Of a stretch of DNA of 42,967 bases, positions 897-39,321 are shown piece by piece; position 1 is the first letter of the stretch, and each line of letters starts with the position of its first letter. The notes under the pieces are model-generated. The model made no database searches. It was given only the letters and a program-made list of their open reading frames with translations, and had not been told where the DNA came from. The DNA lies in IMG/VR virus record IMGVR_UViG_2563366803_000007, positions 1 through 42,967 of that record; one strand, written 5' to 3'. The position numbers and the translations under genes are program-made. This DNA comes from a virus (lineage: Duplodnaviria; Heunggongvirae; Uroviricota; Caudoviricetes).

Positions 897-1658
897 TTAA
901 AGGACTGCCACCCCCCGATCTGACATGCGCGCTTTAACACGCGAGTAGATGCCGTCCAGATCAGATTGCGATTTCGCTGTCGCATGAATCCCATGTGATG
1001 CGTGTTCAATCGTAGCACTATAGAAATTGCTCCCCGCGTGGTAACAATCCCCGACTCCGTGATACTTTGTCGTCGTTGGCGCTGTATATGTCCCGGTAAC
1101 TGATACAACGTCAGAGCTTCCGATATAAATCAGCATGCCTGTAGTGCTCACAGCCAGAGCAACAAATATCCAGTCGCCATCAGAAACGCCTGTCGGCACT
1201 TTAGCAATACCGGAACTGAATCCCCTGACAGTGGATACCAGCTGTCCATTTGTTGGATTAATCCATAATGCTGCACCGCCGTTCGCTGCGGCACCGTCTG
1301 CGGTACCAAACAGGTAGCCACCTGTAGCCTTATATTGTACTACAGCCCAGTGAGTCCACGGGCCACCCACATCGGCAATATTGCTCACCAGTCCATATAA
1401 GCCGCCCACAACCGGCTTGAGGTAGTTTGTGCCATATGTCGGAGGATTGCCGGCACTGAGAGGCGTCAACGTCCTGCCATTAACCAGATCTATCAGACTG
1501 GAAGAATCCGGGCCAAATTCCCATTGACCAAGAGCATCGGATTCAGGAGCAGGGGTAGGCTGAGGAAATAGTGGTGTTAATTTTGATGTATCAACATACT
1601 CCGCTCCAGTAAATGGAACCGAGTAACTTAATTGCTGCAGTGTATAGGACATTACCAT
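897..1658 (-). CDS. Hypothetical protein, distal tail-fibre-associated (253 aa)
   Basis: Last gene of the late operon, overlaps the stop of the upstream spike gene; Gly/Thr/Ser-rich composition. Confidence 0.45.
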   Translation of the reverse strand: MVMSYTLQQLSYSVPFTGAEYVDTSKLTPLFPQPTPAPESDALGQWEFGPDSSSLIDLVNGRTLTPLSAGNPPTYGTNYLKPVVGGLYGLVSNIADVGGPWTHWAVVQYKATGGYLFGTADGAAANGGAALWINPTNGQLVSTVRGFSSGIAKVPTGVSDGDWIFVALAVSTTGMLIYIGSSDVVSVTGTYTAPTTTKYHGVGDCYHAGSNFYSATIEHASHGIHATAKSQSDLDGIYSRVKARMSDRGVAVL

Positions 1659-3376
1659 CCTCTCCTTATTACTTGTTCATACATCCAGTTTGCTAAGTGG
1701 GTCTGGAGTGCTGTACCCCAGTGGACGTTAGTATCATTGGCTGGGGTGTCGGCGGTCCTTAAGCTGCGGGGGACGATCCCTAATGAAACATCGGAAATAT
1801 CATCAGCGCTGGCGCTGGCATACTGAAAAGACCATGGCACACAATCCAGTACTAAATCCCCCCACTTGTCCTTCATCCAGACTGAAATTTCGCGCGAAAA
1901 ATTATTAGGCAATGTCCCTGTAACCTCTCCGGTAGCCACAACACCCGGCGTAATTGGACCACCTACTGGAGGAGTGACAAATAAAACTCTCTTTTCTTGC
2001 GTCAGCTGATAGTTATAAATGCGGGTTAATCTGTCTTTCAGATTTGCTACACGCTCAGAATAATTCGCTGATGTCAGGCCTGAAATGTCATTCCTGCCAA
2101 CCCATATCGTCATCAGATTAAAATTGAGGTCAGCAAAATCACGCTCAAAGGGTGAGCCAGGAGCGCAGTATACTGCAGAACCTGATGCTACCCTGGTAAA
2201 GGTAAATGTGCCGCCAGAAACCCTTGCAAATGCGCCATACACACCACATAGCCACCCGTTCATTGTCTGGTAGCCATTACTGGTTAGTGGCTGGCAATCT
2301 ACCAATTGACCGGTAGATGACAATATCTGGCATACTGTGACATTAACGGAGCCCGATGCAGGAATTGAGTTTCCCTCCACGGTTACCTGCGGAGGTTGAG
2401 CGCCAATTCTCGGCGCTATCATGGACGAATTCTGACCGGAAATTGCCTCTAAATTGAAAGTCCTGCCTGGCAAAAGCCCAGCCAGCGTCGTCCTCCATGC
2501 CGTAGCGCCATTTACCGTCCCCACAGATAAAGAGTCCCCAATGATAGTGAAATCTTTTGTAGGTGATATGTATGGAGAGTTTGCTCCGACTGGTTTCCCA
2601 TACGCCTTCAACTGCAGGTTTGCATGATCAAGGACCAGCAATTTTCGGCCTGCACTATCAACCTGCAAAACCTGTTCTGTTTGGTCAGTTGACGCATACT
2701 GGTACTGATCGGAGAATTTAGGTTGCAGAGTTGTATTAAGCGAACCGGAAGAAAGCATTTCAGTCCCGTAGGCTTTTATGACTTTTCCCGCATGATCTGC
2801 AACAATTAATTTTCTCCCTTCGCTATCAATTAATAAAACAGTCTCAGATTCACTATCTAATAATAGTCTTTTAAAATCAGAAAGCGCCTCAAATACATTA
2901 TCATTTGTATTGTATAGCTCTAAAAACACCGAGGAAATAAGTTGCTGCAAATATTCCTGAGACGGCATTTTTCGTCCGGTAGGCTGCAGCGTCCCGCCAA
3001 CGTTCATGACTTCGATTGCAAGCGCGCTGTCGTCCGGGCTGCGGTAATACGTGGTGCTCCCCGCCGGGATATTCGCGATGTCCGCCTGCGCCGCTGCCAG
3101 TGTCATATACTGGCGGCTGAGTGGAATCAGGTTCTGCCTGGTTTCCTCAACTACAGCATCCCTTTCTTCTTGCGATGTTTCAAAGTCTGCTTGCTGCTGC
3201 GTTAGCTGGTTGCCAGCCTTAACATTAACGCCATGCAAAGTATCTAACTGTTCGCCAGTGCGTGTGGTAATGGTTTCATCGCTGCTATTAACGAACTTAT
3301 CAATAGACTGCATATTATCCCATGCATCAAGCATTGATGCAGACGGCACAGGATTGCCGGTATCGTATTCACTCAT
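1652..3376 (-). CDS. Tail fibre/tail spike protein (574 aa) with GDSL/SGNH-hydrolase-like motif
   Basis: Motif TIIGDSLSVGT (GDS-L block) in the central region; position in the tail-fibre cluster; GGGG RBS before ATG. Confidence 0.55.
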   Translation of the reverse strand: MSEYDTGNPVPSASMLDAWDNMQSIDKFVNSSDETITTRTGEQLDTLHGVNVKAGNQLTQQQADFETSQEERDAVVEETRQNLIPLSRQYMTLAAAQADIANIPAGSTTYYRSPDDSALAIEVMNVGGTLQPTGRKMPSQEYLQQLISSVFLELYNTNDNVFEALSDFKRLLLDSESETVLLIDSEGRKLIVADHAGKVIKAYGTEMLSSGSLNTTLQPKFSDQYQYASTDQTEQVLQVDSAGRKLLVLDHANLQLKAYGKPVGANSPYISPTKDFTIIGDSLSVGTVNGATAWRTTLAGLLPGRTFNLEAISGQNSSMIAPRIGAQPPQVTVEGNSIPASGSVNVTVCQILSSTGQLVDCQPLTSNGYQTMNGWLCGVYGAFARVSGGTFTFTRVASGSAVYCAPGSPFERDFADLNFNLMTIWVGRNDISGLTSANYSERVANLKDRLTRIYNYQLTQEKRVLFVTPPVGGPITPGVVATGEVTGTLPNNFSREISVWMKDKWGDLVLDCVPWSFQYASASADDISDVSLGIVPRSLRTADTPANDTNVHWGTALQTHLANWMYEQVIRRGW

Positions 3377-17197: not shown

Positions 17198-18139
17198 TCA
17201 GATACCGTCCACGTAGGACAGGGTTTCTTTGTACACTGGCTCAACCGCACCGAGCTTGCCGTAGTAGGTCGCAATCTGGTACAGACCGCGATACTGGATA
17301 GGAACGCTCTGCAACGGCACCAGCGGATAGCGCACGTATTTCTTGTCGTTGGTGTAGGCGATCATACGGTCTTTACCGCCAACCCCACGCCCTTTCAGCC
17401 ATTTGACCGCTTTGATTTCAAGCGGAACGCCGTTCTGGTGGAAAGCGATAGTGTTCACAGCCAGATAGGTCAGCAGTGACTGGTTACCCGCTTCGGAAAC
17501 CTTACGGCTCGCCAGCAGTGAATACTGCTCTGGCGGAATGCGCAGATCAGAAGGCACGATGGAATAACCGGATGCTGCCCAGGAATTCGACAGAATGCTG
17601 TTCACGCTATCGAGAATCTCGTCGTTGGTGGAGTTCGCCCAGGTCTTCGGCGCATTGTTCAGCGTCACACCGACAAGGTTTGCCAGCCCTTTCAGGCCGA
17701 GCGCATCATCGCCAATGTAAACCTGCTCGTCGTTGTCCATCTGCCATTTGAGCTGCATCCCGTCGTACTTCTGGGTATCAATCGGGCGACCTACCTGCTG
17801 AGCTGCTGCCAGCTCTACAACGGTCCAGCCCAGTTCCATGCCCCAGAGATTCAGCGGGTTACCGGATTTGCCGATATCCACGTTTACGCCAGCAATAGCG
17901 GTTGAGTCTTTGCCTACCCAGTTTTTGCCATTCGGATTTGCACCAGTACCCGCAGCGGCGAAGCTGGTATTCGTCCAGCTGGAAATGTCATCTGCGATAG
18001 AGACATCTTCACGCAACTGAATATCGCGGGTCCAGGTGTACCCCACCAGTGGAAGGTTCAGCGTCTGGTCGAGTCGCTCCAGCTCCCCGATGAGAAAGGC
18101 ACCAGATCTATCAACGGTTGCCTGATCAAAAGTAATCAT
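17198..18139 (-). CDS. Major capsid protein (313 aa)
   Basis: Size and position after scaffold and decoration-like genes. Confidence 0.6.
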   Translation of the reverse strand: MITFDQATVDRSGAFLIGELERLDQTLNLPLVGYTWTRDIQLREDVSIADDISSWTNTSFAAAGTGANPNGKNWVGKDSTAIAGVNVDIGKSGNPLNLWGMELGWTVVELAAAQQVGRPIDTQKYDGMQLKWQMDNDEQVYIGDDALGLKGLANLVGVTLNNAPKTWANSTNDEILDSVNSILSNSWAASGYSIVPSDLRIPPEQYSLLASRKVSEAGNQSLLTYLAVNTIAFHQNGVPLEIKAVKWLKGRGVGGKDRMIAYTNDKKYVRYPLVPLQSVPIQYRGLYQIATYYGKLGAVEPVYKETLSYVDGI

Positions 18140-24404: not shown

Positions 24405-24947
24405 TTAATTGGTGAGTCCGGGGATTACGGTTTGCCCGTGCTGTTCAAGGCGTTCAATTCTCGCCAGTAGCTGAGGCTTCTTAATTTTTCCCCAGCGATT
24501 AAGCAGGCGGCCTGACATGCTGGCAACATCCTTCTCTTTCATGTACTCCAGCATTACGGCATTTCTCTCTTCTTCAAATTGACGATGACCAACCTGAAGC
24601 ATGGCGTACATCCAGTTGAATGCGTTGATGTAAGCAATTTTGATACGCATTGCTTCTTTTTTGGTGTAGGACATAACCAAAAGCATCAACCCATCCTTGC
24701 GGAGACGGTAGAATTTTTGCGGCTTACCATTCTGTAACTCATTGTTTTTATAGCAAAGCTCAAAGTTGAGCTTTGTATCAAACTCAGGAGGGCAAGCTTC
24801 TATGGTTCGCTCAATGTCACGGACTACGTTCTTCGGCAGCTTTCCAAATGCTTTTGCCACCATAAAAGAATCTGTAACCGGATCGTTGTTTGCTACAAAA
24901 ATTAGGTCTCTGAAATCTATATCGTTAACAACGGTTGGGTAGTTCAT
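24405..24947 (-). CDS. Rha-family phage regulatory protein (180 aa from ATG at 24945..24947)
   Basis: N-terminal block VTDSFMVAKAFGKLPKNVVRDIERTIE resembles the Rha domain; track ORF starts at an upstream GTG. Confidence 0.65.
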   Translation of the reverse strand: MNYPTVVNDIDFRDLIFVANNDPVTDSFMVAKAFGKLPKNVVRDIERTIEACPPEFDTKLNFELCYKNNELQNGKPQKFYRLRKDGLMLLVMSYTKKEAMRIKIAYINAFNWMYAMLQVGHRQFEEERNAVMLEYMKEKDVASMSGRLLNRWGKIKKPQLLARIERLEQHGQTVIPGLTN

Positions 24948-25090
24948 AGCGTCTTTACCTTTTAGAAAGTGAGCCTGTCTCACAGAAAAGCCGCCCGAGA
25001 GAGGTCGCCACCTATAACGGCATTTCTCAGGCTCGCTTACTGAAAGGCTCTCGTTAATATGCGCGTGAGATGCGCGTTTACTGCGGACAT

Positions 25091-25145: not shown

Positions 25146-25604
25146 TTATTTCAGGCATTGCGTCCTGATGTATTCCTGCAGGTAGTTGACCTGTGCGGTT
25201 ATCTTGTCGATTCCACTTCGGAGACGGTAATAATTGAGTTCAGCATCTGCTGTAAGTCCTGGGCTTTCTCCATCGCCCATGCCGCTGGCTCCGGTCGTTG
25301 ACTTTGCACAGGTGGCGGCGACTTGCAGGCGCTTACGCCCAGCAGAAACATCAGCACGGAGACTTTCGATAGTCGCGTTAGCATCAGCAAGCTCCTTTAT
25401 GTATCTTGCGTCGAGTTCTGCTACATCACGTTGACGCTTCCGCATGTCAGCGATGGTGGCGTTCGCCTTCTCCAGTTCACTGGCCTTGTTATCGCGCTGC
25501 TCTTTGTAGGCGATTGCGTTATCACGGTAATGATTAACAGCCCATGACAGGCAAACGATGATGCAGATAACCAGAGCGGAGATAATCGCGGTTACTCTGC
25601 TCAT
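25146..25604 (-). CDS. Rz: Spanin inner-membrane subunit Rz (152 aa)
   Basis: N-terminus [31 protein letters not shown] as remembered for lambda Rz. Confidence 0.9.
25199..25390 (-). CDS. Rz1: Spanin outer-membrane lipoprotein Rz1, embedded in Rz in another frame (start uncertain)
   Basis: Embedded ORF with lipobox-like LLGVSAC followed by Pro-rich segment. Confidence 0.55.
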
Positions 25605-26077
25605 ACCTCAATCTCTCTGACCGTTCCGCCAGCTTCTTTGAATTTTGCAATCAGGCTGTCAGCCTTATGCTCGAACTGACCATAACCAGCCCCCGGCAGT
25701 GAAGCCCAGATATTGCTGCAACGGTCGATTGCCTGACGAATATCACCGTGGTCAATCATCGGTAAAGCGCCACGCTCTTTAATCTGTTGCAGTGCCACAG
25801 CGTCCTGGCTTTTCGGAGAGAAGTCTTTCAGGCCAAGCTGCTTACGATAGGCATCCCACCAACGGGAAAGAAGCTGGTAGCGTCCGGCGGCTGTTGATTT
25901 GAGTTTGGGGTTTAGCGTGACAAGTTTGCGAGGGTGATCGGAGTAATCAGTGAATAGCTCTCCTCCTACAATGACGTCATAACCATGATTTCTGGTTTTC
26001 TGACGTCCGTTATCAGTTCCCTCTGACCACGCCAGCATATCGAGGAACGCCTTACGTTGATTATTGATTTCCACCAT
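25601..26077 (-). CDS. R: Endolysin R (lambda-type lytic transglycosylase, 158 aa)
   Basis: Matches lambda R from memory ([24 protein letters not shown]...). Confidence 0.95.
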
Positions 26078-26384
26078 CTTCTATTCCGGCTTTTTTAGCA
26101 GCGAAGCGTTTGATAAGCGAACCAATCGAGTCAGTACCGATGTAGCCGATGAACACGCTCGTTATATAAGCGAGATTGCTACTTAGTCCGGCGAAGTCGA
26201 GAAGGTCACGAATGAACCAGGCGATAATGGCGCACATCGTTGCGTCGATTACTGTTTTTGTAAACGCACCGCCATTATATCTGCCGCGAAGGTACGCCAT
26301 TGCAAACGCAAGGATTGCCCCGATGCCTTGTTCCTTTGCCGCGAGAATGGCGGCTAACAGGTCATGTTTTTCTGGCATCTTCAT
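26061..26384 (-). CDS. S: Holin S (107 aa)
   Basis: Matches lambda S from memory ([22 protein letters not shown]...); dual-start motif MKM. Confidence 0.95.
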
Positions 26385-26626
26385 GTCTTAGCCCCAATAA
26401 GGGGATTTGCTCTATTTAATTAGGAATAAGGTCGATTACTGATAGAACAAATCCAGACTACTGTGTTTAGTAATCAGATTTGTTCGTGACCGATATGCAC
26501 GGGCAAAACGGCATGAGGTTGTTAGCGCAACCTCCTGCCACCCTCTTTCACGAAGGTCATGTGTAGAAGGCCGCAGCGTAACTATCACTGATGAGTTCAG
26601 GATAGCCAGTGGCTACGGCTCAGTTA

Positions 26627-26702
26627 TGGTGCTGGTTAACGGACTTGAACCGCTACCCATTCGCTTACAAGGCGACTGCTCTACCATTGGAGCTAAACCA
26701 GC
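26627..26702 (-). tRNA. tRNA-Thr (anticodon UGU), phage-encoded
   Basis: Manual cloverleaf: 7-bp acceptor stem GCTGGTT/AACCAGC, D stem GCTC/GAGC, anticodon loop CTTGTAA, T loop TTCAAGT, 3' ACCA encoded. Confidence 0.6.
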
Positions 26703-26707
26703 ATATT

Positions 26708-26782
26708 TGGCGGGACAGCGTGGACTCGAACCACGATAAGAAGGTTAACAGCCTTCCGTAATGACCTTTATACGACTGACCC
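26708..26782 (-). tRNA. tRNA-Asn-like (anticodon GUU), possibly degenerate
   Basis: Manual cloverleaf: anticodon stem GAAGG/CCTTC, loop CTGTTAA, T arm CGTGG-TTCGAGT-CCACG, CCA encoded; one mismatch each in acceptor and D stems. Confidence 0.45.
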
Positions 26783-26873
26783 AAATAAAAAAAGCCACCG
26801 TTGCAACTTAAGAGTCACTAACGGCAGCTTATGCGAATAGTGTTGCTCATTTGCTCAATGATGTCAACACGTT

Positions 26874-27362
26874 CTATGCTACATGTTTAATTTTCTCTAC
26901 ACGTTTCCGGTTTTTAAACGCACTATCCAGAACCGGGTAAATCATAAACAACGAGGCATTGAGGATTTCGTCAACTTCCCGTCGACAGGTTGCGAGCGAT
27001 GGTTTTTGAATGCGCCCGCCGCCCCGGCATAACATCTTGCGAGGTCTTGCGACGCGATGATAGTAAGATGCAATGGCGTGCTTGGAAGAGCCGTGGGCGT
27101 AGTAGCTGAGGAGGATGCCAAAGGCTTTCTTGTCAATGTACATGACGGAATCGACGACCTGAGAAATCAACATTCCATCATCATCATTACACATTGGCCT
27201 TGTCATAACTCTTCCCGGCTCTACGCTCTCCATGAACTTCGCTATTACGCTGCTCATGCGCTTTTCCAGGCGGCCTGAATAAACCCATGCGCCCCACAGT
27301 TCAAGCCAGCCATTCAGCCACTCATGCTGTTCTTTGGTGAGGTTTAGTTCTCTTATGCCCAT
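26874..27362 (-). CDS. Late-gene antiterminator Q-like protein (162 aa from ATG at 27360..27362); not lambda Q
   Basis: Position between ninG and the lysis cassette; GGGAGAAGG RBS; Cys-containing C-terminal region. Confidence 0.6.
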   Translation of the reverse strand: MGIRELNLTKEQHEWLNGWLELWGAWVYSGRLEKRMSSVIAKFMESVEPGRVMTRPMCNDDDGMLISQVVDSVMYIDKKAFGILLSYYAHGSSKHAIASYYHRVARPRKMLCRGGGRIQKPSLATCRREVDEILNASLFMIYPVLDSAFKNRKRVEKIKHVA

Positions 27363-27405
27363 GCGCCTTCTCCCTTGTGATCTGGAATGGTTTTTACTGA
27401 GAACG

Positions 27406-28011
27406 TCATGCGGCCTCACTTCTGCTGTTTCGCAGGTCTTTGAGTTTCTGCTGATACTCCGCCTTGATGGCCCTGCACTCTTCGACAGTCCAGCGATGGC
27501 GGTTATGGTTTGATTCGATTTCGTCTACTGCTTCCTGCCCGATGCGGTTAATCAGTTCGACGCGATACGGAACGAGATTTCCGCTTTTGTGCTGGTTGCA
27601 CACCACGCATTGCTTGTGAATATTGCGTTCATCAAATCGGAGTTGAGGTGCCGCAGCAGTTGTCCGGTAATGCCCGGCATCCCACTGAGCAGACGTGAGC
27701 GTTCCGCACGAGATACATGGTAAGTCGCGGTCTCTTTCTCTGATGAAGGCGTTTACGGCTTGTTGGGCTTGTTTAATCCAGTAACTGCGGGGCTTTAAGG
27801 CGAGTTTTCGAATCTTAAGTTTATCTTTCTGTTTCTGCTCCTCTCGTCGTCGTTTCTTCTCTGCTGCTTTTTCCGCTTTTTTTCGCTGTTTACTTTGTAG
27901 TTTGAGTGCTAACTGAGTTCCGTGTTCCGGGCAGCACCACCACTGATTTGAGAATGCCGGGTGAAACCATTCCTTGCATATTTTGCATTTCCTTCGCGCT
28001 GGTTTAGCCAT
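27406..28011 (-). CDS. ninG: NinG/Rap recombination-promoting nuclease (201 aa)
   Basis: Near-identical to lambda NinG as remembered (MAKPARR...[44 protein letters not shown]). Confidence 0.9.
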
Positions 28012-33939: not shown

Positions 33940-34779
33940 ATGAAGAATGGTTTTTATGCGACTTACCGCAGCAAAAATAAAGGGAAAGATAAGCGCTCAA
34001 TAAACCTGTCTGTTTTCCTTAATTCTCTGCTGGCTGATAATCATCACCTGCAGGTTGGCTCCAATTATTTGTATATTCATAAAATCGATGGAAAAACTTT
34101 TCTCTTTACCAAAACAAATGACAAGAGTCTGGTTCAGAAGATAAATCGCTCTAAAGCTTCAGTTGAAGATATTAAGAACAGCCTCGCAGATGACGAATCA
34201 TTGGGATTCCCATCTTTTTTGTTTGTTGAAGGCGACACCATTGGTTTTGCCAGAACTGTTTTCGGGCCGACCACATCCGATCTGACAGATTTTTTAATCG
34301 GGAAAGGAATGTCATTAAGCAGTGGAGAGCGCGTTCAGATAGAGCCACTGATGAGGGGAACCACCAAAGACGATGTTATGCATATGCATTTCATCGGCCG
34401 AACAACGGTGAAGGTAGAAGCCAAGCTACCTGTATTTGGCGATATATTAAAGGTCTTAGGGGCAACAGATATTGAAGGGGAGCTTTTTGACTCATTGGAT
34501 ATAGTCATTAAGCCAAAATTTAAAAGGGATATAAAAAAGGTTGCCAAGGATATTATTTTTAACCCGTCACCTCAATTTTCAGACATTAGCCTGCGGGCAA
34601 AAGATGAGGCCGGAGATATTTTAACAGAACATTATCTATCAGAAAAAGGCCATCTCTCAGCGCCTCTGAACAAGGTCACCAATGCTGAGATAGCTGAAGA
34701 GATGGCATATTGCTACGCAAGAATGAAAAGTGATATACTGGAATGTTTTAAAAGGCAGGTGGGCAAAGTTAAGGATTAA
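33940..34779 (+). CDS. rexA: RexA exclusion protein (279 aa)
   Basis: Length and position immediately downstream of cI as in lambda. Confidence 0.85.
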   Translation: MKNGFYATYRSKNKGKDKRSINLSVFLNSLLADNHHLQVGSNYLYIHKIDGKTFLFTKTNDKSLVQKINRSKASVEDIKNSLADDESLGFPSFLFVEGDTIGFARTVFGPTTSDLTDFLIGKGMSLSSGERVQIEPLMRGTTKDDVMHMHFIGRTTVKVEAKLPVFGDILKVLGATDIEGELFDSLDIVIKPKFKRDIKKVAKDIIFNPSPQFSDISLRAKDEAGDILTEHYLSEKGHLSAPLNKVTNAEIAEEMAYCYARMKSDILECFKRQVGKVKD

Positions 34780-34794
34780 TTATCAGGAGTAATT

Positions 34795-35229
34795 ATGCGG
34801 AACAGAATCATGCCTGGTGTTTACATAGTAATAATTCCTTACGTTATCGTAAGCATTTGCTATCTCCTTTTCCGCCACTACATTCCTGGTGTTTCTTTTT
34901 CAGCTCATAGAGATGGTCTTGGGGCGACATTGTCATCATATGCAGGAACCATGATTGCAATCCTGATTGCTGCCTTGACGTTTCTAATCGGAAGCAGAAC
35001 GCGCCGACTGGCCAAGATTAGAGAGTATGGGTATATGACATCGGTAGTTATTGTCTATGCCCTTAGTTTTGTTGAGCTTGGAGCTTTGTTTTTCTGCGGG
35101 TTATTGCTTCTTTCCAGCATAAGCGGCTACATGATACCCACTATCGCCATCGGCATTGCCTCTGCATCGTTCATTCATATATGCATCCTTGTTTTCCAAC
35201 TATATAATTTGACCAGAGAACAAGAATAA
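34795..35229 (+). CDS. rexB: RexB membrane protein (144 aa)
   Basis: Multi-pass hydrophobic protein, length and position as lambda RexB. Confidence 0.85.
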   Translation: MRNRIMPGVYIVIIPYVIVSICYLLFRHYIPGVSFSAHRDGLGATLSSYAGTMIAILIAALTFLIGSRTRRLAKIREYGYMTSVVIVYALSFVELGALFFCGLLLLSSISGYMIPTIAIGIASASFIHICILVFQLYNLTREQE

Positions 35230-38015: not shown

Positions 38016-38621
38016 ATGAGCAAAGAATTTTACGCAAGACTGGCAGCTATTCAGGAGAATCTGAACGCGCCAAAGAATCAGTACAACTCATTCGGTAAAT
38101 ATAAATACAGAAGCTGCGAAGATATTCTTGAAGGCGTTAAGCCGTTACTGAATGGTCTGTTTTTATCAATCAGCGATGAAGTTGTGTTGATTGGTGATCG
38201 GTATTACGTGAAAGCCACGGCAACTATTACCGATGGCGAAAACAGCCATACAGCAACCGCTCTTGCACGAGAGGAAGAAAGCAAGAAAGGAATGGATTCT
38301 GCACAAGTTACGGGAGCTACAAGCTCTTATGCACGCAAGTATTGCCTCAATGGTTTGTTCGGCATTGATGATGCGAAAGATGCAGATACAGACGAGCATA
38401 AACATCAGCAGAACGCAGCAGCAAAGCAATCAAAACCATCACCTACACCTGAACAGGTTCTAAAAGCATTCACTGACGCAGCAATGCAGAAAAACACCGT
38501 AGAAGAGCTTAAACAGGCGTTCGCCAAAGCGTGGAAGATGCTCGAAGGCACACCTGAGCAGCACAAAGCGCAGGACGTTTACAACATCAGACGAGACGAA
38601 TTAGAAGGAGCTGCTGCTTAA
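38016..38621 (+). CDS. erf: Erf single-strand annealing recombinase (201 aa from internal ATG)
   Basis: MSKEFYARLAAIQENLNAPKNQYNSFGKYKYRSCEDILEGVKP matches P22 Erf N-terminus from memory. Confidence 0.85.
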   Translation: MSKEFYARLAAIQENLNAPKNQYNSFGKYKYRSCEDILEGVKPLLNGLFLSISDEVVLIGDRYYVKATATITDGENSHTATALAREEESKKGMDSAQVTGATSSYARKYCLNGLFGIDDAKDADTDEHKHQQNAAAKQSKPSPTPEQVLKAFTDAAMQKNTVEELKQAFAKAWKMLEGTPEQHKAQDVYNIRRDELEGAAA

Positions 38622-39004
38622 TGGCACATTCGATTACTGTAAGACTAAACAAGCCCGCAAGAGAGTTTCAGGCCGGGGAAAATATCGGATTCAACATCCG
38701 TGCTGGCGTTCAGTATTACGATCGCCAGACAAAAAAGAAAGAATGGACAAACTACAGCGCCGTTGTATTTGCCAAGCCGGGAGCGCAAGCGGATTACTAC
38801 CGTAGTGTTCTTGTTGAAGGTGGCATTGTTGAAATTACCGGAGAAAACATCAGGGTTGATGTTTATCAGGGGCAAAATGGTCAATCAATCACTCTTGAAT
38901 TACTGAATGCAAAGATTGGATTTGCAACTTCAGGAAACAGCCAACAGCAGCAAAGTAGCAATCATCAAAATCATCCTGAATACGACGATTCAATTCCCTT
39001 CTAG
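38621..39004 (+). CDS. Short SSB-like single-stranded DNA-binding protein (127 aa)
   Basis: C-terminal acidic tail DDSIPF (SSB tail is DDDIPF) after a Gln-rich linker; coupled to erf. Confidence 0.55.
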   Translation: MAHSITVRLNKPAREFQAGENIGFNIRAGVQYYDRQTKKKEWTNYSAVVFAKPGAQADYYRSVLVEGGIVEITGENIRVDVYQGQNGQSITLELLNAKIGFATSGNSQQQQSSNHQNHPEYDDSIPF

Positions 39005-39027
39005 ATTAGCAAAATAAGGATTCCATT

Positions 39028-39321
39028 ATGCCAGCGCCTCTGTATGGTGCGGATGACCCGCGCCGCTGTTCCGGCAATTCCGTATCGGAGGTGCTGGATA
39101 AATTCAGAAAAAACTACGATCGAATAATGTCTCTACCGCAGGAAACGAAAGAGGAAAAGGAATTTCGCCACTGCATATGGCTTGCAGAGAAAGAAGAGCG
39201 CGAGCGAATTTACCAGACATCAATCCGACCATTCCGCAAAGCCACATATACCCACTTCCCTGAAATTGACCCGCGCCTGCGTCATTACCGCTCACGCTAT
39301 GGCGCTATCAGTAATGACTGA
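39028..39321 (+). CDS. Hypothetical protein (97 aa), tentatively Abc2-like anti-RecBCD
   Basis: Size and position after erf as in P22; identity not verifiable here. Confidence 0.4.
   Translation: MPAPLYGADDPRRCSGNSVSEVLDKFRKNYDRIMSLPQETKEEKEFRHCIWLAEKEERERIYQTSIRPFRKATYTHFPEIDPRLRHYRSRYGAISND

Follow-up and report, generated by a model that had tools for sequence, protein, structure and literature searches.

What two transfer RNA (tRNA) genes contribute to a temperate phage, and whether the second of them is still a working gene, are the questions raised by positions 26627-26782 of IMG/VR virus record IMGVR_UViG_2563366803_000007 (Caudoviricetes). We analyzed the whole stretch of 42,967 nucleotides (nt), which is called the window here. 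A preliminary description had read the locus as tandem Thr-UGU and Asn-GUU-like genes, 5 nt apart on the late strand and with encoded CCA ends, and had suspected that the second was degenerate. In the window ARAGORN called two tRNA genes and no more, both of them on the minus strand, and its calls and those of Rfam agreed exactly. Both genes matched the Rfam tRNA model RF00005 end to end (model positions 1-71 of 71), with scores well above its gathering score of 29 bits. The spacing, the strand and the CCA ends were likewise borne out, the last being visible as tgg on the plus strand at 26627-26629 (Thr) and 26708-26710 (Asn).

26627-26702, minus strand: tRNA-Thr(UGU), 76 nt, CCA encoded (ARAGORN anticodon tgt; RF00005 61.5 bits, E 4.7e-11)
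26703-26707, minus strand: inter-tRNA spacer, 5 nt, AAUAU on the RNA strand (sequence reading and alignment)
26708-26782, minus strand: tRNA-Asn(GUU), 75 nt, CCA encoded (ARAGORN anticodon gtt; RF00005 55.3 bits, E 2.3e-9)

The two genes are intact and stand at the start of the late operon of a lambda-like (lambdoid) mosaic prophage. Their anticodon loops, CUUGUAA (Thr) and CUGUUAA (Asn), are 7 nt long with U33 and a purine at position 37, and the T-loops, GGTTCAAGTCC and GGTTCGAGTCC, fit GTTCRA; both genes encode CCA, as enterobacterial genes do. The tRNA-Thr has G1-C72, C2-G71 and A73, with an anticodon stem GUCGC/GCGAA that contains a G27.A43 mismatch. The tRNA-Asn has the anticodon stem GAAGG/CCUUC and the discriminator G73, and cmscan showed mismatches at U4.U69 in its acceptor stem and U13.U22 in its D stem. 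In Escherichia coli, threonyl-tRNA synthetase (ThrRS) recognizes G1-C72, C2-G71, G35 and U36, and asparaginyl-tRNA synthetase (AsnRS) recognizes G34, U35, U36 and G73. On reading the sequence, we found all of these bases in the window tRNAs.

Minimum free energy folding of single sequences returned a cloverleaf for the tRNA-Thr and none for the tRNA-Asn or for the genuine K-12 asnT and thrU, all with z scores of about -1.7 to -2. Because the genuine K-12 tRNAs also missed the cloverleaf, such folding is unable to judge degeneracy, and covariation was used instead. An exact 18-nt D-arm pattern of the tRNA-Asn retrieved 120 IMG/VR contigs, which made 126 segments once the previously fetched loci and the window were added; the pattern fixes tRNA-Asn positions 10-27, so that invariance there, U13.U22 included, arises by construction. 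Among 18 distinct tRNA-Asn variants, six stem pairs had changes on both sides (19 cells), with double changes that include A6-U67 to G-C, G7-C66 to A-U, A28-U42 to C-G, A29-U41 to U-A and C5-G68 to A-U. The cells were paired in 90% of cases compared to 33-53% in slid controls, and 0 of 500 shuffles reached the covariation score, a count that is not to be taken as a probability. For the tRNA-Thr (20 variants), four pairs had compensatory changes in 12 cells and 94.5% of the cells were paired; G27.A43 was unpaired in 20 of 20. The U4.U69 mismatch was present in 16 of the 18 tRNA-Asn variants, with conversion to a G.U wobble in the other two, and this recurrence points to conservation rather than random damage; U13.U22 was present in 18 of 18, inside the retrieval pattern. 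As judged from these variants, both mismatches are family traits and not damage. The mismatches noticed in the preliminary description are therefore real, whereas the degeneracy suspected from them is unsupported, given the score of 55.3 bits, the six compensatory pairs and the presence of the AsnRS bases.

Comparison with phage 21 placed the pair as a standing component of a phage-21-type late-control module, arranged as Q21, pR' with its Q-binding element (QBE), the terminator tR' and the tRNAs; the pair marks the late-control module of the window as being of this type. The well-known phage 21/Sf6 module had gone unrecognized in the preliminary description. The positions of the elements were transferred from the curated phage 21 record OL657228 through a gap-free alignment (window coordinate = coordinate in the fetched phage 21 segment + 25064), and the functions of identical elements are taken from its annotation.

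26874-27362, minus strand: gene for the Q antiterminator, phage-21 type, 162 amino acids (aa) from ATG (Pfam Phage_antitermQ, E 1.1e-24; transferred from OL657228)
26839-26867, minus strand: predicted late promoter pR' with embedded QBE, identical to phage 21
26862-26867, minus strand: -35 element of pR', TTGACA (phage 21 annotation)
26844-26859, minus strand: QBE, ATTGAGCAAATGAGCA (phage 21 annotation)
26839-26844, minus strand: -10 element of pR' (phage 21 annotation)
26832, minus strand: late transcription start (phage 21 annotation, identical sequence)
26825-26831, minus strand: sigma-dependent pause element (phage 21 annotation, identical sequence)
26783-26830, minus strand: intrinsic terminator tR' in the late leader RNA, a 17-pair hairpin and U7 tract (fold; annotated in phage 21 and Sf6)

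The region across 26565-27000 is 99.3% identical to phage 21. From the end of Q through pR', the QBE, the pause element, tR' and both tRNAs the two phages are the same apart from a single spacer base, with the same order and spacing, and the tRNA-Thr is identical to that of phage 21 ('tRNAThr21') at 76 of 76 positions. The phage 21 record cites Guo, Kainz & Roberts 1991 (PMID 1704887) for the late regulatory region, and this region with its tRNA-Asn and tRNA-Thr is also described in PMC9119081. The window has each part of such a module: a Q21-family antiterminator, a direct-repeat QBE (ATTGAGCA/AATGAGCA) within the promoter, the pause element and the leader terminator. A simple promoter and terminator scanner run on the minus strand flagged neither pR' nor tR', and both were placed by identity to phage 21 and by direct folding; the tR' fold has -20.2 kcal/mol with a z score of -4.56, and 0 of 200 shuffles were equally stable. 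The mechanical open reading frame (ORF) list lengthens Q to a GTG at 27419.

The tRNA-Asn gene starts 1 nt past the end of tR' and no separate promoter is evident, from which we infer that synthesis of the tRNAs would depend mainly on read-through of tR' by Q21-modified RNA polymerase and that they would head the late transcript. Their excision would fall to the RNase P and 3' processing enzymes of the host, and they would then supply the phage with its own decoders of ACA and AAC/AAU during late protein synthesis. We consider it likely, taken as a whole, that the locus encodes two functional tRNAs of a phage-21-type module, expressed by Q-dependent read-through, which act in decoding and of which the tRNA-Thr resists the P2 OLD nuclease, the role of the tRNA-Asn being inferred. 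The pair itself is already known, being annotated in the GenBank records of phage 21, Sf6, SfI and others. With the pair annotated and the mechanism of the tRNA-Thr published, the finding adds little beyond its context.

The OLD nuclease of the P2 prophage kills lambda-infected cells by cutting the host tRNA-Thr(UGU), and tRNAThr21, when expressed, was reported in 2025 to protect or rescue cells from it (PMC12445682). This tRNA was uncut by P2 OLD without ATP and poorly cut at 150 mM K+, a physiological concentration; it has a shortened anticodon stem (G27.A43) together with the changes C28U and G42A (PMC12445682). In a T-even rescue tRNA, stem shortening and an altered CNG motif were jointly needed for resistance to P2 OLD, and G27.A43 is one of two changes common to that tRNA and the phage 21 tRNA-Thr; anticodon mutants of the rescue tRNA lost protection (PMC12445682). 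The window tRNA-Thr possesses these features. Its anticodon stem replaces the ACUGA/UCAGU of the host, with UCG/CGA instead of CUG/CAG at positions 28-30/40-42, so that the CNG motif is altered (U28-A42 for C28-G42) and G27.A43 is unpaired, and it is the same 76-nt sequence as the phage 21 tRNA that was plasmid expressed or transcribed in vitro for the published work. The benefit of the tRNA-Thr is experimentally grounded because the published tests used this identical molecule. The tRNA-Thr would thus be expected to resist P2 OLD and to replace the cut host tRNA-Thr(UGU). Erf and Abc2 take the place of lambda Red/Gam in the window prophage, which may or may not trigger OLD, one of the systems that guard RecBCD.

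Another relevant nuclease is AriB of the PARIS system, whose substrates are Lys(UUU), Thr(UGU) and Asn(GUU), cut at U36AAUC|A41; substitutions at positions 39 and 41 prevent the cut (PMC12409363). The anticodons in the window are two of the three AriB targets, and both tRNAs differ from those of the host at positions 39 and 41, which flank the 40|41 cut: positions 36-41 read UAAGCG in the tRNA-Thr (host UAAUCA) and UAACCU in the tRNA-Asn (host UAAUCC). All three T5 versions of these tRNAs were needed for full rescue from PARIS, and every rescuing T5 set contained Lys(UUU) (PMC12409363). The T5-like evaders are virulent and carry some 20 tRNAs, whereas the carrier described here is a temperate lambdoid in which ARAGORN found no tRNA-Lys(UUU); with no such gene in the window, the pair cannot count as a complete PARIS-evasion set and resembles one at most in part.

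For the tRNA-Asn, positions 28-30/40-42 read AAG/CUU (host CGG/CCG), and neither the paired CNG motif of P2 OLD nor the U36-A-A-U39 motif of AriB is present in its anticodon stem. With both nuclease motifs absent, comparison of the stems suggests that it would most likely serve as a cleavage-resistant replacement tRNA in parallel with the tRNA-Thr. One could go further and propose that the whole Asn(GUU) and Thr(UGU) pair is a Q-controlled counter-defense cassette with which temperate lambdoids meet the anticodon-stem-cutting Toprim nucleases of rival elements (P2 OLD and PARIS AriB). We offer this extension only tentatively, as a possibility with the odds somewhat against it. If it were true, G27.A43 in the tRNA-Thr and A28-U42 plus C39 in the tRNA-Asn would be adaptations, not defects, and the tRNA-Asn, unexplained by codon usage, would resist cleavage and contribute measurably to escape. 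It would also bear on why many temperate enterobacterial phages retain a tRNA-Asn(GUU) with no codon-usage reason, namely to replace host tRNA destroyed by the nucleases of prophages or satellites.

Codon usage was compared between the window and a 49-kb K-12 sample, following the suggestion in the preliminary description that phage and host be compared for ACA and AAC/AAU; enrichment was found for ACA and not for AAC/AAU. ACA makes up 13.8 per 1000 codons of the window (24% of its Thr codons) compared to 7.2 per 1000 in the K-12 sample (13% of Thr codons) and 3.6-4.6 in the ribosomal and ordinary (core) genes of that sample. The tRNA-Thr therefore probably also helps in reading ACA, a rare codon in the host that the phage uses about twice as often. 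The same ACA bias was reported for SfI (17.3 versus 7.1), the authors of which found no explanation for its tRNA-Asn (PMC3636060). In two tail-fiber-like genes (897-3376, minus strand), 27 of the 75 Thr codons are ACA. Tail-fiber and early genes, rather than the most abundant protein, would gain from any codon supply by the tRNA-Thr(UGU).

Several observations weigh against the reading of two functional tRNAs with a nuclease-resistant tRNA-Thr. The resistance of tRNAThr21 is partial, and the rescue came from plasmid expression, not from phage 21 infection (PMC12445682). As a PARIS countermeasure the pair is incomplete, having no counterpart of tRNA-Lys(UUU), the main target of AriB. In some Klebsiella-type arrays the tRNA-Asn has C28-G42 in place of A28-U42, which restores the CNG motif. 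Asn codons are not enriched (AAC 24.9 and AAU 19.7 per 1000, with 56% AAC, near the host sample), and none of the 19 Thr codons of the probable major capsid gene (17198-18139, minus strand) is ACA, which also weakens codon supply as a sole purpose. The set of homologues is biased to close relatives, which tempers the covariation counts. Finally, the source of tRNA transcription in such phages, the late transcript or an unidentified promoter, has been stated to be unknown (PMC8022706), and the expression, processing and charging of both tRNAs are here predicted; nothing usable on the expression of the pair in BTP1 or Sf6 came out of a literature search.

Among the other explanations, the one that survives best is that the tRNAs only boost phage-favored codons, mainly ACA, and have no anti-nuclease role. 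We regard this as unlikely, although several observations favor it: the ACA enrichment is about 2-fold over the K-12 sample and 3-4-fold over the K-12 core genes, it is concentrated in tail-fiber-like late genes and recurs in SfI (PMC3636060), and the extra tRNAs of related arrays, Arg-UCU and Gly-UCC, read rare codons ending in A. It leaves the tRNA-Asn without a purpose in the absence of Asn codon enrichment, as it did for the authors of SfI, and Asn-GUU and Phe-GAA decode common codons; nor does it fit the lack of ACA in the likely capsid gene or predict the G27.A43 mismatch found in all of the Thr variants.

A 601-nt query around the tRNAs matched 177 phage records, with matched features annotated as antiterminator Q, tRNA-Thr and tRNA-Asn in Sf6, SfI, SPN9CC, Oslo, CurroJimenez and phage 21. 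Of 5426 complete E. coli genomes, 837 were matched by a 271-nt query (26600-26870, comprising the tRNAs and pR'-tR'), with at least 80% of the query length covered in 266, and among the E. coli matches listed RefSeq labels tRNA-Thr and tRNA-Asn where these are present. Sf6, SfI, BTP1, SPN9CC, vB_SosS_Oslo, Kapi1 and CurroJimenez have the same two tRNAs, 99-100% identical, past tR' and before the holin; the carriers of this Sf6 group are mostly P22-like podophages, and the Asn and Thr tRNAs of Sf6-type phages have been described (PMC3636060, PMC8022706). Sf6 shares the holin leader of the window, and unlike the window it has its own promoter, Q-binding region and Q specificity (alignment columns 1-70). 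The Asn-Thr array was present in 100 of the 126 segments, the others having Asn-Phe-Thr-Arg(UCU) with or without Gly(UCC), Asn-Gly, or Asn alone, and the spacer was 5 nt long in 102 related Asn-Thr arrays.

Some relatives have unusual arrays in the same slot. Klebsiella phage Mulock (901-1220 of the fetched locus) and several IMG/VR loci carry Asn-Phe(GAA)-Thr-Arg(UCU) with or without Gly(UCC), separated by 5-6-nt spacers. In one IMG/VR relative with a Q21-type terminator, the tRNA-Thr is chimeric, with positions 1-25 from the phage gene and the remainder identical to host thrU, and is followed 3 nt later by a glyT-like tRNA-Gly(UCC). By its sequence, this array looks like the product of recombination of a phage tRNA-Thr with the host thrU-tyrU-glyT-thrT operon.

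Shiga toxin (Stx) phages have the same slot between Q/pR'/tR' and the lysis genes, filled with tRNA-Ile, two tRNA-Arg and stx, and the analogy drawn to them in the preliminary description fits. In place of that cassette (Ile, Arg, Arg, stxAB), the window has Asn and Thr tRNAs and no stx. The Stx2c prophage of O157:H7 strain N8B7-2 (NZ_CP038333.1, segment 2200-2620) has the same Q21-type Q and pR'-QBE-tR' as window positions 26759-26875 and keeps only the first 24 nt of the tRNA-Asn, after which come tRNA-Ile, two tRNA-Arg and stx2cAB. This places the recombination breakpoint within the D arm of the tRNA-Asn and indicates that the Asn-Thr pair and the toxin cassette are alternative occupants of one slot, a recombination hotspot that holds the toxin cassette in O157:H7 Stx2c prophages.

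Such exchanges lend some color to the view that the tRNAs are neutral passengers, host genes taken by illegitimate recombination that ride with the Q module and bring no selective advantage: phages do recombine with host tRNA operons, as in the chimeric tRNA-Thr/thrU, and the slot is a hotspot with the Stx2c breakpoint inside tRNA-Asn. We nevertheless find it very unlikely. The genes are old and diverged, with only 53 of 77 positions of the tRNA-Thr identical to K-12 thrU and 44 of 76 of the tRNA-Asn identical to asnT, on which ground recent capture from the host was also rejected; the pair is kept with compensatory changes across phages of E. coli, Shigella, Salmonella and Klebsiella; it is as widespread as the matches in the E. 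coli genomes indicate; and an experimental phenotype exists for the tRNA-Thr.

The position of the pair next to tR' allows another reading, RNA-processing punctuation, in which the late mRNA is freed of its pR' leader and terminator hairpin by RNase P cleavage and decoding is a side effect. The tRNA-Asn lies within 1 nt of tR', the terminator T-run ends no more than 6 nt from the start of tRNA-Asn in 112 of the 126 related loci despite at least two different terminator stems, and the 242-nt stretch downstream of the pair is strongly structured (26385-26626, minus strand; -89.8 kcal/mol, z score -6.92, 0 of 200 shuffles as stable, several long hairpins). However, lambda, P22 and many other lambdoids have a similar late operon without tRNAs there (PMC8022706), the conserved anticodons and identity elements are not required by processing alone, and protection depended on decoding, as the anticodon mutants of a rescue tRNA showed (PMC12445682), so that we judge this reading highly improbable. 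Equally hard to sustain is the idea that the tRNA-Asn is a decaying pseudo-tRNA beside a functional tRNA-Thr, which draws on its two non-Watson-Crick positions, its lower score (55.3 versus 61.5 bits) and the lack of an evident codon-usage rationale, and which was rejected on the covariation evidence: the score is nearly twice the Rfam threshold, the sequence is identical in phage 21, Sf6 and ST160, U4.U69 recurs across the variants (U13.U22 by construction only), the other six pairs carry compensatory double substitutions, the anticodon loop, T-loop, G73 and CCA are all intact, and the damaged-looking second gene of ST160 looks unlike it.

This second tRNA-like gene of Salmonella phage ST160 (776-860 of the fetched locus) has the acceptor, D and T arms of the phage tRNA-Thr together with an anticodon arm 4 nt shorter, and it receives no call from ARAGORN. 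At the corresponding position, phage L was reported to have a 'Leu-UAA' tRNA (PMC8022706). The ST160 gene may be a damaged or recoded derivative.

Downstream of the pair, a three-way alignment of the window with phage 21 and Sf6 located a mosaic junction. The match to phage 21 is lost at about 26565, whereas that to Sf6 extends as far as the start of the holin gene, which indicates that the tRNAs travel with the Q/pR'/tR' module and that the junction lies about 60 nt past the tRNA-Thr. The junction divides the 242-nt stretch into one part that goes with the tRNAs and another that goes with the lambda-type S gene.

26566-26626, minus strand: trailer of about 60 nt that travels with the tRNA module, kept in phage 21 and Sf6 and ending at the mosaic junction
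26385-26565, minus strand: untranslated holin leader, common to Sf6 and absent from phage 21 (three-way alignment)

A permissive Rfam scan of 26000-27500 returned only the two tRNAs and one chance match resembling a small nucleolar RNA (E 0.34), and thus no third or relic tRNA, known small RNA or other Rfam family in the 242-nt trailer. Within the interval between tRNA-Thr and the holin gene, the ORF list (floor of 40 aa) contains no ORF above 50 aa and no toxin gene; its sole entry is a spurious-looking 50-aa GTG frame, and a toxin or other cargo ORF between Q and S was ruled out. The ORF list and Pfam also upheld the placement of the pair between Q and the holin.

The order on the minus strand is Q, the control region, tRNA-Asn, tRNA-Thr, the 242-nt untranslated stretch, holin, endolysin and Rz. 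The lysis cassette (25146-26384) lies downstream of the tRNAs on the same strand as Q and in the same late transcript. Phage 21 has the S21 pinholin and a signal-anchor-release (SAR) endolysin, whereas the window has a lambda-S-type holin leader and lysis cassette.

26061-26384, minus strand: holin S, lambda-S type (Pfam Phage_holin_3_1, E 2.4e-30)
25601-26077, minus strand: endolysin (position and the annotation of syntenic Sf6 gene 62; the Pfam search gave no match for this ORF)
25146-25604, minus strand: Rz (Pfam Phage_lysis, E 1.9e-38)

The remainder of the window is a different mosaic from phage 21. Its early genes are HK97/HK544-like, with cI, cII, rexA/rexB, N, Erf, Abc2 and an integrase at the right end, and its structural genes resemble an SEN34/SfI-like contractile-tail module, the relatives being SEN34 and Escherichia and Klebsiella phages with annotated tail sheath and baseplate proteins. 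Lambda-type rexA/rexB adjoin cI, and Erf and the P22-type anti-RecBCD protein Abc2 are present instead of lambda Red/Gam (33940-35229 and 38016-39321, plus strand). The late operon also includes, at 24405-24983 on the minus strand, a gene whose product is a Rha-family regulatory protein with an ORF11CD3 domain; it is flanked by the lysis cassette and by the gene for the small terminase.

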